64,000 nt of DNA from a bacterium (GCA_036274695.1 DASUFF010000173.1:105-64104), one strand, 5' to 3'. Shown: positions 57,266 to 62,682, counted from the stretch's first letter. Program-made: numbers and translations. Notes: generated from the letters alone by a model not told the origin.

Positions 57266-57367
57266 ACCGCAGAGGATACTATCAAACTGTGAATGTGTCT
57301 ATCGCCCGTGACACTCACATGAGGGCATCGAAAAGGCTCTCTTCTTTTAAAATCAAGTAGTTATGCT

Positions 57368-57383
57368 TGGCATCCTGATTGCT
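57368..57383 (+). promoter_or_regulatory. sigma-54 promoter TGGCAT-cctga-TTGCT
   Basis: 27 nt upstream of ATG 57410 with GGAAGGAG SD. Divergent from the kinase-EBP gene. Confidence 0.55.
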
Positions 57384-57409
57384 CTTTAACCCTCCCGGAA
57401 GGAGCAATT

Positions 57410-58078
57410 ATGGGAAACGACAAGTGCGACGCCTTGGGAGGAATCAGCGGTCCGGACGTGTGCGCCTTCGACACGCCGGAGGGCGGGTTCACCGTCCAGG
57501 CCCTTTCCTGCGATAAGAACGCCTTCGCCCAGGTTCAAGACGCGGCATTTACGAAAGAGGATCTGGCGACGATCAGCCGTGTCACCAACTCGAACGCCCT
57601 CGTCACCTTCGCCCTTTGCACCGACTCCTACCGCAGCGGCGTCCTCGGCATCGCCCCGGACGCCCTGGCCAAGCAGCACGACTCCAGCCTGAAGCTCTTT
57701 CGGCAAAAATGCGGGACGTCCGGCATGGACAAGGCCAAGTGCGACGCCGTCGACAAGACCGCCGAGGAGAATGCCCCCGAGAAGGAGCATTGGATCTGGG
57801 AATGGTTCCGGGAAATGCGCACGGGCATCTTCTTCGCCGCCGGCGCCATCCTCTTGGACCGGATTTTCCGGAAGCCGACCGACAAGGGCGGCGGCCAGGG
57901 GTTGAGTTCCGAGACTCCGACGACGACCGTCACCGCCGAAGATTTTAAAAAACTTTACGCCGACCCGATGTCCGCCGGCGCCCTCGACTTCGCCGCCGGT
58001 TCGGCGCCGTCGGCGAAAACCTTAATCGCCCCCGTCGCAATGCCCTTGGGAGGGGCGATCCTCGTTCCGGCTTATTGA
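57410..58078 (+). CDS. hypothetical Cys-rich protein with central TM segment
   Basis: 222 aa. N-terminal domain with 8 Cys, hydrophobic segment GIFFAAGAILL. No signal peptide. Confidence 0.5.
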   Translation: MGNDKCDALGGISGPDVCAFDTPEGGFTVQALSCDKNAFAQVQDAAFTKEDLATISRVTNSNALVTFALCTDSYRSGVLGIAPDALAKQHDSSLKLFRQKCGTSGMDKAKCDAVDKTAEENAPEKEHWIWEWFREMRTGIFFAAGAILLDRIFRKPTDKGGGQGLSSETPTTTVTAEDFKKLYADPMSAGALDFAAGSAPSAKTLIAPVAMPLGGAILVPAY

Positions 58079-58093
58079 AAAGGAAATTCCACC

Positions 58094-60112: not shown

Positions 60113-61147
60113 ATGAGCTGCAAGATCGGAGAAAAAACCAACGGCGCTTGCACCCTGGACGACGGCGATTTCAAGGGCCTGGAATACGGCGACTGCGGGG
60201 CGGCCTATCAGACCTTTCAGAAGGCGGGACAGGCGCCGTGGACGGCGGAGGATCTGAAAAAGATCGAGGACGCCTACAAGGCTTTCTCCGCAACGCCGCT
60301 CCGCATCTGTTCGACCTCCGAGGCGCACCCGTCGACCATCGGCCTGATGGCCAAGACGCCCCGGGAGATCGAAGCCGCGACCAAGCTCGTCGCCGACGCC
60401 TTGGCCGTCACGCCCGCCGCACCGGAAACGTCCGACGTCGACTGGCTCAAATTAGGCCTGAGCGTTTTCGCCGGTCTCTCGTTGGTCGCCCTGGGCGTGT
60501 ATTTCCTCTACCGCCGCGAATCGAAGACGGACGCGCCTCAAAATCCGCGGTCCGCGGAGGACCTGATCGAGACGAAAATCATCGAATTGCCGGCCGAGGC
60601 GGCCGGTAGGGCGGGCGATCGCATGAGGGAGATCCTGCTCGCCGTCTCGAGCCGATTTCCGGAACTGGGGAGGACACAAATGACGGAACTCGCCGACTTG
60701 GTCGAGCGCTACCGGAAGGCCTCGAGCCCCGACCTCCAGGAGAACGGATCGCTTTTCGAGGCCTCGATCAAACAGGGGCTTCTGGAATACATCGACGTCC
60801 TGGCGGGGCGCGACGATATCCGGACCATCGATCTTCTGATGAGGGGCATGACGCCCGTCTACGATCCTTCGACCGGCGTCTTCAGCGGCGACATCGTCGA
60901 CGCCCAGGGAAACGGCGCCTACCCCATCTGCGAGGACGACAAGACGCCCGTGGACGCCACCATCCCCGAAATCATGGCGGCCTACGAAGAAATCGGAAAT
61001 GACCGAACCTTGGTCGAAGGCCCGCGCCCGGTCGACCGCCTGAAGCCCCGCCAAGTCGACCGCGTCACCCGCGACTTCAAGGCGGCCGCGCCGGAAAAAA
61101 CCGTCTCCGAGAAAAGGCCGGAAACCGAGGAACTTAAAAAGCGCTGA
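60113..61147 (+). CDS. hypothetical Cys-containing protein with central TM segment
   Basis: 344 aa. Architecture parallels 57410-58078: N-terminal Cys-containing domain, TM helix LGLSVFAGLSLVALGVYFLY, C-terminal domain. Confidence 0.5.
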   Translation: MSCKIGEKTNGACTLDDGDFKGLEYGDCGAAYQTFQKAGQAPWTAEDLKKIEDAYKAFSATPLRICSTSEAHPSTIGLMAKTPREIEAATKLVADALAVTPAAPETSDVDWLKLGLSVFAGLSLVALGVYFLYRRESKTDAPQNPRSAEDLIETKIIELPAEAAGRAGDRMREILLAVSSRFPELGRTQMTELADLVERYRKASSPDLQENGSLFEASIKQGLLEYIDVLAGRDDIRTIDLLMRGMTPVYDPSTGVFSGDIVDAQGNGAYPICEDDKTPVDATIPEIMAAYEEIGNDRTLVEGPRPVDRLKPRQVDRVTRDFKAAAPEKTVSEKRPETEELKKR

Positions 61148-61254
61148 ATTCTCACTTTGATAGAATTCTCAATTTGAGAGGAAGGGCGCGTCGGCGCCGG
61201 CCTCCGAAAAGATTGTATTTCAATGACTTAGGCGGCATTCCTTCCGGAATTTAT

Positions 61255-61270
61255 TGGCATCTTTCCTGCA
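61255..61270 (+). promoter_or_regulatory. sigma-54 promoter TGGCAT-ctttc-CTGCA
   Basis: GG-N10-GC spacing. 30 nt upstream of ATG 61300 with AAGGGAGG SD. Confidence 0.45.
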
Positions 61271-61299
61271 GGTTCTTCGAACGTAAGGGAGGCCCTCGC

Positions 61300-62682
61300 A
61301 TGAAGACTGTCACTCTGGCCGTGCTCGCGCTGTTCGGCGTCGTTACCGCTCTCGACGCGGCTCCCTTGGGGATCTGGTCGAAGGCGGTGAAGACGACGCT
61401 GGGCCCCAAAGGCCGCAACGTCGTGCTGAAAAGATCGGTCGACACCGCATTTCCGAAGGAGGGCGGCTTCCGGATGCCCGCGCCCGAACCTTGCTACGAT
61501 TACGCCTTCGTCTCCCGCCGGGATCGCAACGTCGACAACATCTTTTTCGCCAACACCTGCACGCCGGAGCTGCGCTCGGTGACGAACAACACCTCCAACC
61601 GGATTTCCTTTTCCAGCCTGGCGAGCAGCATGATCTACACGGAAGTGGCCGCCGTCGCAATCGATTTGACGGACCCCCTGCGTCCGCGCCCGTATCTGAC
61701 GACGTGGAACGGCAGGGGCGGCGGCGACATGCCTTACTACGGCTTCCGCGATCGCTTCCTCCCATCCTTCCCGGCGTACGGTCCCTACGGCTGGTTCGCC
61801 ATGGTCACGACGGACACGGAGTGGCGGAACGCGGTCGTTCGCCGCGGCAACCTCTCCGTCTATTCGGCCGAGGAGCCTCCCATCATTCTGCGGGACGACC
61901 CCGGCGACACGCGGACCCTGGGCCGGATTTCTTGGATCGGCGCGCTGGACGCCTCGCAACCGGGCTATGAGAAGCTGGTCGTTTCGGTCCGGCGCGGAAG
62001 TTATTTCGAGAACGGCCAGTTCCGGAGGGACGACGTCGATCGCCTGTACGTGCTGGACCCGTCCTCCGGCGATCTCGATCCTTTGAAGGATCCGTCGGAT
62101 TACGCGCACCAGGACGTCGCCATGGAAGGACGCGAGCCGGCCACCGGCAAATACGGCCAAAAACTCGCGTTCATCCGGAACGTCTACGGATTGAACCGCC
62201 TGTGGACCTGCGATCTCACGCTGGAGCCCGCGGAGGGGGAGGGCGGCGGCTACCAATGCGCCAACGCGCAGATGGTGACCACCGACTTTCACGAGCCCGA
62301 AAGCTTAACCGGCAACTACGACTGGCCCTGCTGGTCCTACGACGCCAAAAAGATCTTCTTCTCGTTCGACGGGCTCCGCGCCTCGACGGACGATCATCCC
62401 TACAGCAAGATCTACGTGATGAACCCCGACGGAACGGGCCTGCGCCGCCTGAACGACGCCAACCCGGACGGCACCGACAACGTGGACAACGACTCTTACC
62501 CGGCCTGTCTGCCCCTCATGCTGCAGGCGGCACCCCCACCACCCGTGTCCGTGCAGCCGTATCGGGAGCCTCTTCAAGTCTATCCTTATACCCGAACTTA
62601 CGAGCTGGCCCCGTACCGCTGCGACGAAACGCACGCCTGCCCTTCGGGAATGACCTGCGGCACGGATCACTCCTGCCGCTAG
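61300..62682 (+). CDS. secreted TolB-like beta-propeller (PD40/WD40-like) protein with Cys-rich C-terminus
   Basis: Signal peptide MKTVTLAVLALFGVVTALDA. Motifs KIFFSFDG and SKIYVMNPDGTGLRRL resemble TolB PD40 blades. Tail YRCDETHACPSGMTCGTDHSCR. Confidence 0.55.
   Translation: MKTVTLAVLALFGVVTALDAAPLGIWSKAVKTTLGPKGRNVVLKRSVDTAFPKEGGFRMPAPEPCYDYAFVSRRDRNVDNIFFANTCTPELRSVTNNTSNRISFSSLASSMIYTEVAAVAIDLTDPLRPRPYLTTWNGRGGGDMPYYGFRDRFLPSFPAYGPYGWFAMVTTDTEWRNAVVRRGNLSVYSAEEPPIILRDDPGDTRTLGRISWIGALDASQPGYEKLVVSVRRGSYFENGQFRRDDVDRLYVLDPSSGDLDPLKDPSDYAHQDVAMEGREPATGKYGQKLAFIRNVYGLNRLWTCDLTLEPAEGEGGGYQCANAQMVTTDFHEPESLTGNYDWPCWSYDAKKIFFSFDGLRASTDDHPYSKIYVMNPDGTGLRRLNDANPDGTDNVDNDSYPACLPLMLQAAPPPPVSVQPYREPLQVYPYTRTYELAPYRCDETHACPSGMTCGTDHSCR

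Follow-up and report, generated by a model that had tools for sequence, protein, structure and literature searches.

A putative local sigma-54 regulon with two paralogous kinase-fused activators and a mosaic set of uncharacterised envelope proteins

A 64,167-bp contig of a bacterial metagenome-assembled genome (GCA_036274695.1 DASUFF010000173.1:105-64104; the whole stretch of 64,000 nucleotides (nt) analysed is called the window hereafter) carries at positions 57,266 to 62,682 five genes, g1 to g5, which the original prediction took for a sigma-54-driven module of membrane and secreted proteins. The region (locus tags VFX30_14385-14415) is wider than these coordinates and includes also a lipoprotein gene, a third sigma-54 promoter and a second activator gene paralogous to the first (Table 1). 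Genes g1 to g4 are tightly linked with the predicted spacings, their start codons lying 16, -10 (an 11-nt overlap) and 18 nt from the end of the preceding gene, and g5 has its own promoter. The locus is read here as a local sigma-54 regulon of two paralogous activators with a mosaic gene set, not as a five-gene machine, a reading whose chances of being right or wrong are about even.

Three sigma-54 promoters that look conserved are present in the locus, and the repeats upstream of them are of two kinds. The pattern TGGCAY-N5-YTGCW is found five times in the window, against 0.13 expected, a count reached in none of 100 shuffles. The promoters of g1-g4 (TGGCATCCTGATTGCT), of the lipoprotein gene (TGGCATCGTGATTGCT) and of g5 (TGGCATCTTTCCTGCA) all match exactly; the second is one base away from the first, and the third is kept as TGGCACCTTTCCTGCA in a close relative of the locus (Logan contig L002). 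In all three, which start at 57368, 51906 and 61255, the GG and GC doublets of TGGCAC-N5-TTGCW are exactly 10 nt apart. The GC element precedes the ATG by 27-31 nt at g1 and g5, with a Shine-Dalgarno sequence in between. The g1 promoter, divergent from the kinase-activator gene, and the g5 promoter are both found where the original prediction had placed them. Promoter conservation is seen for g5, in L002; no relative covers the g1 promoter. Two further exact matches, at 8511-8526(-) and 47861-47876(+), precede orphan genes (7827-8498 (-) and 47907-48395 (+), the latter without a Pfam family). This organism appears to have many uncharacterised genes in its sigma-54 regulon. Regulons of this sigma factor often serve the cell exterior (PMC3162934).

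The g1 and lipoprotein promoter regions align over ~110 nt and share an upstream element TGTGAATG...GACACTCACA, whose copy at 51838-51858 is a candidate activator-binding site. The copy at 57288-57319 overlaps the sigma-70-like promoter of the divergent activator 1 gene and may therefore also autoregulate activator 1. The upstream element of the g5 promoter differs from that of the two others and is a tandem direct repeat, candidate binding site of activator 2, which is invariant in L002. Between window and L002 the g4-g5 intergenic region is 92% identical, against a difference of 27-36% at third codon positions in the genes on either side; this spacer is thus more constrained than synonymous sites, good evidence that it is a functional regulatory region. 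The lipoprotein promoter at 51906 is followed by a leader of ~300 nt that contains a hairpin (folding z-score of -2.1 for the region 51930-52125) without a match in Rfam, which may be an attenuator, a terminator, a structured leader or a short sigma-54-dependent RNA.

Neither g1-g5 nor the lipoprotein have a significant match to a Pfam, NCBIfam, PADLOC or PHROG family; the sole hit of the five proteins to the defence and phage models (PADLOC, PHROG) is a spurious one caused by a GroEL-like motif. The earlier statement that none of the five belongs to a recognisable family holds for these libraries, but g2 has 12 remote homologues and g5 carries a PD40-type blade. The seven proteins of interest, g1-g5 included, are all singletons at 90% identity annotated as hypothetical, which would suit a chance adjacency of genes or spurious open reading frames (ORFs) with idle promoter-like sequences. 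Such an explanation is nonetheless highly implausible. The GC content at third codon positions is high in all five genes (0.75-0.83) and Shine-Dalgarno-like sequences precede each of them, the one of g2 being weaker. Divergence from L002 follows codon position 3 > 1 > 2 in g2 (C-terminal half), g3, g4 and g5, showing that these four are true genes on which purifying selection acts, if in a rather relaxed way; for g1 there is no homologue with which to make the comparison. The coding pattern, homologues for four of the five genes, a promoter enrichment above that of 100 out of 100 shuffles and an intergenic region more conserved than synonymous sites largely refute a fortuitous arrangement.

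Table 1. Coordinates of the genes, promoters and other elements of the locus, and of sigma-28-type sites in loci with homologues of g2 (EBP, enhancer-binding protein; aa, amino acids)
Feature	Coordinates	Strand	Remarks
Upstream element TGTGAATG-N3-GACACTCACA of lipoprotein promoter	51838-51858	+	right half 57 nt before -24 element
-24/-12 promoter of lipoprotein gene	51906-51921	+	TGGCATCGTGATTGCT, one base off g1 promoter
Hairpin in lipoprotein leader	52033-52108	+	perfect 13-bp stem (52033-52045 with 52096-52108), then TTTTCC
Lipoprotein gene	52205-53080	+	291 aa, lipobox LLTGC
Activator 1 (EBP1)	53084-57265	-	1393 aa, divergent from g1 promoter
Upstream element TGTGAATG-N14-GACACTCACA of g1 promoter	57288-57319	+	right half 58 nt before -24 element
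-24/-12 promoter of g1-g4	57368-57383	+	TGGCATCCTGATTGCT, exact pattern match
g1	57410-58078	+	222 aa
g2	58094-59551	+	485 aa
g3	59541-60095	+	184 aa
g4	60113-61147	+	344 aa
Tandem direct repeat ATTCTCA[C/A]TTTGA[T/G]AG x2	61148-61180	+	75-107 nt before g5 -24 element; invariant in L002
-24/-12 promoter of g5	61255-61270	+	TGGCATCTTTCCTGCA, kept in L002 as TGGCACCTTTCCTGCA
g5	61300-62682	+	460 aa
Activator 2 (EBP2)	62679-64000	-	runs past window end, convergent with g5
GCAAC...CCGATAA(C) sites	L006 1411, 2577, 6292, 9897; L007 30, 3296
GCAAC...CCGATAA(C) sites	L009 2540, 4505, 6588, 8650, 9951, 11790
GCAAC...CCGATAA(C) sites	L010 7289, 8621, 9837, 11735, 14707; L011 9959

Activator 1 is composed of Pkinase, AAA_16 (STAND NTPase), TPR, GAF, Sigma54_activat and HTH_8 domains. 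Its Sigma54_activat AAA+ domain (PF00158, E-value 5.5e-69) and carboxyl terminal Fis-type helix-turn-helix (HTH; PF02954, E-value 4.6e-5) are the features of an enhancer-binding protein, and models of NifA, NorR and AtoC match it with E-values up to 1e-105. Activator 2 is a paralogue with 65-66% identity over the GAF, AAA+ and HTH domains. This architecture and the paralogy are established. The kinase domain of activator 1 (E-value 5e-22) has the VALK motif and features HGD and DLS where HRD and DFG are canonical; its homologues in two related loci, L008 and L011, have canonical HRD and DFG. The loop contacting sigma-54 reads G[AS]FTHA, not GAFTGA, in all four kinase-fused activators (1, 2 and those of L008 and L011), with GAFTHA in activator 1 (residues 1138-1143, 53837-53854(-)) and GSFTHA in activator 2. 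The rare GAFTHA variant is found also in D. vulgaris DVU2894, where it was judged compatible with activation (PMC4641369). The likeness concerns the loop: DVU2894 is a single-component regulator with a predicted flagellar regulon (PMC4641369), whereas the present cluster has no flagellar gene.

The two paralogous cytoplasmic activators that flank the cluster, with their Ser/Thr kinase, STAND NTPase/TPR, GAF, AAA+ and HTH domains, would each recognise a repeat of their own, situated 60-110 bp ahead of a -24/-12 promoter, and open the closed complex of sigma-54 at the cost of ATP. Activator 1 is proposed to serve the near-identical promoters of the lipoprotein gene and of g1-g4, both with TGTGAATG...CACTCACA, and activator 2 the g5 promoter, which has ATTCTCAnTTTGAnAG twice. 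The latter pairing is suggested by the HTH of activator 2, which is nearest to that of the activator found next to a g5 homologue in a second relative, L001. The expectation of dedicated regulators and promoters with products directed to the envelope is supported.

The g5 product has a signal peptide and, beginning ~40 residues after it, a propeller that spans about residues 60-405; a Pro-rich linker then leads to a four-Cys knot at residues 441-459, and the protein has 10 Cys in total. Its AlphaFold model (predicted local distance difference test (pLDDT) 67.8; predicted template modelling score (pTM) 0.69) is a propeller of ~25 strands and about six blades whose best matches in the PDB are TolB structures (E-value 3.7e-10, template modelling score about 0.5), followed by S9-peptidase propellers. 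The predicted secreted TolB-like propeller with a Cys-rich tail is therefore recovered. Since TolB-like sequences are part of the g5 alignment, the model supports a TolB-like fold, not orthology. Eight of the 10 Cys are invariant in the three homologues compared, as expected of a disulfide-bonded periplasmic or extracellular protein. The likeness to TolB lies in secretion, a propeller with a PD40-type blade and the top PDB matches. The differences are the absence of TolB_N (no PF04052 match) and of a tol-pal context, the neighbours being g4 and an activator gene, a sequence identity of 12-16%, the carboxyl terminal four-Cys knot among 10 Cys and the own sigma-54 promoter. The g5 product is not a TolB orthologue; a true TolB accompanied by TolQRA is present, for comparison, in locus L009. 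Immediately after the g5 signal peptide the sequence AVKTTLGPKGRNVVL (61384-61428, residues 29-43; AVKVTLGPRGRNVVL in L002) is nearly identical to the amino terminal signature of GroEL and triggers weak matches to GroEL models. A chaperonin kinship was discarded, as the motif is a match of 15 residues only and is absent in the L001 homologue.

Relatives of the locus are few in a lineage that is very thinly sampled. A word-index search identified one true homologue of g5 (P0008, 51% identity, JGI contig L001), plus PD40-only matches, and one homologue of g4 (P0021, 63% identity, in L002). L002 has the gene order of the window, with g2 (C-terminal half, 75% identity), g3 (80%), g4 (63%) and g5 (76%). 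L001 is a more distant relative, whose XerC/D is 82% identical and is followed by the g5 homologue, a weakly similar lipoprotein and a convergent activator (61-67% identical); g1-g4 are not present in L001. Its g5 homologue is preceded by a 26-bp palindrome, TCAAAATGATAAAATTATCATTTTGA, that contains TTTTGA, and by a GGGCATCCGGTTTGCT element of the form GGGCAT-N5-TTGCT. Gene g3 is seen only in the window and L002. Hidden Markov models (HMMs) of g1, g3, g4 and the lipoprotein detected no further homologues in six-frame translations of all fetched loci, and PDB sequence searches with g1, g3 and g4 found nothing.

These relatives bear on whether the five proteins form a single envelope-spanning module with one function that co-evolves with the activator, for instance a propeller docking on two bitopic proteins and a membrane helical protein. 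The tight linkage of g1-g4, the g2-g3-g4-g5 order kept in L002, the sigma-54 type of both promoters and the prediction that every product but g3 is membrane-bound or exported would agree with such a module. However, L002 is too close (63-80% amino acid identity) for its synteny to be evidence of selection, L001 has g5, the lipoprotein and the activator without g1-g4, genes of the g2 family are found in eight other loci without g3 or g5, and g5 has a promoter to itself, whose upstream element is a different one. A single module is therefore very unlikely. The coherent five-gene module first proposed is supported only in part; the lack of co-occurrence in orthologous loci, named then as what would speak against it, is in part observed, L001 and the eight g2-family loci lacking the full set. 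Judged from the gene content of these loci, the five genes are not one conserved machine.

The g2 protein has no Cys at all and is, by its matches, a member of a rare, undescribed all-alpha family. A full HMMER search of 1.84 billion cluster representatives retrieved 12 remote homologues (21-37% identity, E-values 2.6e-55 to 6.8e-4), while a word-index search retrieved none. The homologues mostly cover query residues ~40-476, that is the helical and the carboxyl terminal alpha/beta domains, and W326, Y337, Y349, G375 and Q451 are invariant (alignment A4). The model obtained from the 13-sequence alignment (mean pLDDT 71.8) has residues 1-51 disordered, a moderately hydrophobic helix bundle at 54-263 and a confident alpha/beta domain at 273-477. 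Structure prediction, which for g5 led to the TolB-like propeller, gave for g2 no PDB fold match, and a PDB search with the g2 profile was also empty.

In one other lineage, that of the mutually related loci L008 and L011, the g2-family gene is beside, or 3 kb from, a gene coding a Pkinase-GAF-Sigma54_activat protein of 1440 or 1485 amino acids, ~42% identical to the window activators over the carboxyl terminal 580 residues. L011 has six exact -24/-12 matches in 21 kb and L008 three; a fourth in L008 begins with G instead of T. Nine of these ten matches, found in about 42 kb, have tandem TTTTGAAG/CTTCAAAA about 60-110 bp upstream; the one at L008 17804 has no upstream repeats and no called gene close downstream. 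The same motif precedes also the activator genes themselves, and its core, TTTGA, is found again both in the palindrome of L001 and in the g5 repeats of the window. This would fit related activator HTH domains recognising related putative sites.

Elsewhere the g2 family is associated with another kind of promoter. The g2-family genes and their neighbours in L006, L007, L009, L010 and L011 are usually preceded by GCAAC-N12-17-CCGATAA, or a close variant, 25-60 nt (in one case about 140 nt) before the ATG, which on its sequence is a sigma-28/FliA-type promoter. Two such sites are found in the window, outside the cluster (7807-7835(-) and 14786-14814(-), against 0.02 expected); they precede a 129-aa ORF (7382-7771) and a 70-aa Ser/Thr-rich ORF (about 14552-14761). 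All-against-all BLAST of the loci shows the family to be multi-copy, L006 and L010 having four tandem copies each and L009 seven. In Bdellovibrio bacteriovorus, TTAAG-N16-CCGATA is found upstream of 66% of attack-phase promoters, which depend on FliA (PMC3627812). The arrays of L006, L007, L009 and L010 are similar to that regulon in having many uncharacterised genes each with a sigma-28-type promoter, an identical -10 CCGATA(A) and a similar spacing of 15-16 nt, a comparison at promoter level. They differ in the -35 element, GCAAC instead of TTAAG, and the g2 gene of the window is the second gene of a sigma-54 operon.

Such arrays raise the question of an effector-like cargo, in which the g2 family and its Cys-leader partners would be membrane-active proteins deployed phase-specifically against or onto prey, host or competitor, and one copy would have been brought under the control of sigma-54 in the window lineage. 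The tandem arrays, in which many copies have their own GCAAC-N12-17-CCGATAA promoter, the occurrence of Fic and papain-like proteins among the neighbours, the fast sequence divergence with moderately hydrophobic helices and the precedent of the FliA-driven attack phase (PMC3627812) are in its favour, but the analysis revealed neither a secretion system or signal nor a toxin domain, and this explanation is unlikely. The neighbours of the g2 arrays (L010 5670-7208; L011 11298-13217; L006 1-1286) include a Fic-domain protein, a papain-family protein (Peptidase_C1) that has a signal peptide, and a protein of 846 aa that matches FHA weakly. In L005 and L015 (JGI 3300013121 and Logan SRR34141493) an orphan block with a g2-family gene and a g1-like gene lies inside the nuo (complex I) operon, at the same place in these two independent contigs. 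Toxin-antitoxin pairs are part of the block: both contigs have PIN and ParE/Phd, and L005 alone has also AbiEii and HepT/MNT.

In the g2 family 33 of 54 Cys belong to the first 50 residues, where 9% would be expected (p about 2e-21), in a leader C-x6-11-C-x14-21-C directly after the initiator Met (MCDSTIxxC, MSGxxC.D.GG..C). The amino termini often begin with MG or MC, and the leader is seen in L006, L007, L008, L009 and L012. In the window the tri-Cys leader is found on g1 (57425-57463) and g4 (60119-60151), not on g2. Beyond its leader (C6, C18, C34; additional Cys at 70, 101 and 111), g1 has a short hydrophobic helix at 138-149; a run of Gly and a linker rich in Thr separate this helix from a hydrophobic Pro/Val tail. 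This full architecture recurs in four proteins encoded beside g2-family genes in L007, L005/L015 and L006. They have an M-[SG]-x1-3-C leader with the second Cys 11-15 residues on, three of the four having also MSGxxC-x-D-x-GG. The leader is followed by a domain with Cys and by a hydrophobic helix, which in three of the four comes after WE; a run of Gly and a linker of S/T/P then lead to the hydrophobic Pro/Val tail. The product of L009 8748-9839 resembles g4 rather than g1. A Cys-leader membrane protein and a g2-family protein are accordingly no more than a candidate conserved pair, not a proven one. The possibility that g1 and g2 are a split version of long-form g2 homologues was rejected for lack of sequence support.

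The g4 protein has its tri-Cys leader at C3, C13 and C28, a further Cys at 66, a strong transmembrane helix (114-132, hydropathy 2.13), a helical carboxyl terminal domain and a basic tail. Acidic residues precede the helix and RRESK follows it; by the positive-inside rule the carboxyl terminal domain is probably cytoplasmic. The design attributed earlier to both g1 and g4, a Cys-containing amino terminal domain, a central transmembrane helix and a carboxyl terminal domain, holds for g4, which is bitopic, and recurs beside g2-family genes of other lineages, while the hydrophobic stretch of g1 counts only 12 residues and no significant sequence similarity links g1 with g4. A zinc-binding anti-sigma design for the two proteins was also discarded: there is no HxxxCxxC, no adjacent gene for an extracytoplasmic function (ECF) sigma factor and no Pfam match.

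The g3 protein is soluble, without signal peptide, and has a basic carboxyl terminal tail with PRGADRLKPR (residues 138-147), similar to PRPVDRLKPR in the g4 tail (residues 304-313). In the window and the fetched loci, PRxxDRLKPR (59952-59981 in g3, 61022-61051 in g4) is found elsewhere only in their L002 homologues, and it is possibly a common docking motif of the two proteins. The g4 homologue P0021 has in its carboxyl terminal domain an insert of ~190 amino acids that is missing from the window g4. The insert is FHA-like at a borderline level (PF00498, E-value 1.5e-3, 19.4 bits against a cut-off of 20.7) and its best PDB sequence match is the FHA protein ArnA; the window g4 has no match to PF00498. 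A cytoplasmic carboxyl terminal domain of g4 fits both this insert of its homologue and the tail motif common with the signal-less g3.

These features may be read as a signalling feedback, where g4 and perhaps g1 are transmembrane sensors whose cytoplasmic parts, with g3, dock through PRxxDRLKPR onto the TPR or kinase of the activator, phosphothreonine tunes the interaction as in PpkA-Fha1 or in the coupling of Ser/Thr protein kinase, FHA and EBP of Myxococcus, and the operon mainly autoregulates its activator. It would draw on the fusion of kinase and activator, the borderline FHA-like insert with its ArnA match, the tail motif confined to g3 and g4 and kept in L002, the Thr-rich linker of g1 and the positive charges after the g4 helix. 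However, the FHA-like insert is missing from the window g4, is under the Pfam threshold and, as read from its sequence, lacks the canonical GR and SxxH phosphothreonine-binding residues, and the HRD and DFG motifs of activator 1 are degenerate, which makes such a feedback decidedly unlikely.

Under the preferred reading of a local regulon with mosaic cargo, the envelope output would comprise the lipoprotein, the periplasmic disulfide-rich propeller g5 and the bitopic g4, with its carboxyl terminal domain probably in the cytoplasm; further products would be the membrane-associated Cys-leader protein g1, the helical protein g2 and the small cytoplasmic g3, which may be partnered with g4 through the docking-like tail motif. 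The set would be a mosaic of two units. One would be an older set of propeller, lipoprotein and activator, duplicated here. The other would be the Cys-leader membrane protein with the g2-family helical protein, a unit found again in distant lineages, where sigma-28-like promoters usually precede it and tandem arrays are frequent. Several observations weigh against this reading. The rpoN gene is not in the window, and the assignment of activators to promoters is drawn purely from shared motifs and HTH similarity. The HGD and DLS motifs of activator 1 are non-canonical, so that its kinase may not phosphorylate. Most g2-family loci have no activator within 10 kb. The hydrophobic stretch of g1, of 12 residues with a Kyte-Doolittle mean below 1.2 over 19 residues, is too short for a canonical transmembrane span, and g1 has no sequence homologue anywhere searched. 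The amino terminal domains of g1 and g4 are not significantly similar (BLASTP E-value 0.05, HMM E-value 1.6), their likeness resting on Cys spacing (C6/18/34/70 and C3/13/28/66). The g1-like profile A7 matches g4 with an E-value of 0.012, over the segment C...W[TD]..[DH]L...C[ST] that also aligns g1 with g4, and g1 with an E-value of 0.16, both below significance. The g5 model has a pLDDT of 67.8 and its alignment with TolB-like sequences biases it toward TolB. Finally, g5 is found only in two relatives (L001, L002) and g3 and g4 only in L002, and the only additions from four scans of genomes and metagenomes were the L001 contig, already known, and a spurious kinase of Acidobacteriales.

The regulatory organisation has several points in common with known systems. 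As in PspF/pspABCDE, an activator gene is divergent from a -24/-12 promoter with a binding site, here a candidate one, in the common intergenic region, and the operon codes small membrane or peripheral helical proteins with an envelope output. It differs from Psp in that no PspA, PspB or PspC family match is found here, the activator is a 1393-aa kinase-STAND-TPR-GAF fusion instead of a bare AAA+-HTH protein, and there are two activators and three promoters. In Myxococcus xanthus, sigma-54 activators are reportedly coupled to Ser/Thr kinases through FHA domains, as Jelsbak, Givskov and Kaiser are said to have described in 2005, and PknK of M. tuberculosis is a STAND kinase. The window activators share with them the coupling of a eukaryote-type Ser/Thr kinase to sigma-54 and the STAND NTPase and TPR sensor. 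Here, in contrast to M. xanthus, kinase and activator are in one polypeptide and the FHA-like element, if real, is in the target-gene homologue P0021, not in the activator; activator 1 differs from both in having HGD/DLS instead of HRD/DFG.

The cluster lies among chromosomal genes (dnaE, hflX, lipB, dsbD, folE, trmB and a XerC/D-type recombinase gene) and its GC content is even, at 0.61-0.64, showing that it is not a compositionally foreign island. The segment 5191-16497 (-) of the window is packed with orphan paralogue families: three MGGST... genes (6027-6353, 6367-6693 and 6721-7305 (-)), with a homologue in L011 near the kinase-activator, and four mutually related genes coding 214-240 amino acids (5191-5913, 11283-11948, 14824-15468 and 15847-16497 (-)). 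A tRNA at 16603-16675 is the only Rfam match in the whole window.

The regulatory logic of an enhancer-binding protein with sigma-54 promoters on envelope genes is of a known kind, while the cargo families are undescribed: at least two have no annotation or fold match. The most likely role of the system would be the signal-dependent deployment of envelope or membrane-active proteins in a given life-cycle or stress state; the cargo is expected to act at the envelope, which fits the link of sigma-54 to the cell exterior (PMC3162934). Tractability is limited by the uncultured hosts. If the proposed wiring is right, the locus would be a compact natural case in which kinase/STAND sensing of eukaryote type is directly fused to sigma-54 activation; within this one locus the combination would have been duplicated and its copies rewired to different sites upstream, with promoter-site pairs readable from sequence. 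One cargo family has undergone repeated amplification and is linked with alternative sigma factors in distant uncultured bacteria, a pattern usual for life-cycle or interaction genes. Tentatively, a g1/g4-type protein and a g2-family protein might together be an undescribed two-part module, thinly scattered over uncultured lineages, tandem-amplified and always behind alternative-sigma promoters, sigma-28-like or sigma-54. It could represent a class of proteins that is new, phase-specific, membrane-active or exported, and recognisable by an amino terminal tri-Cys leader, with GAFTHA-loop kinase-fused activators as master control in some lineages.

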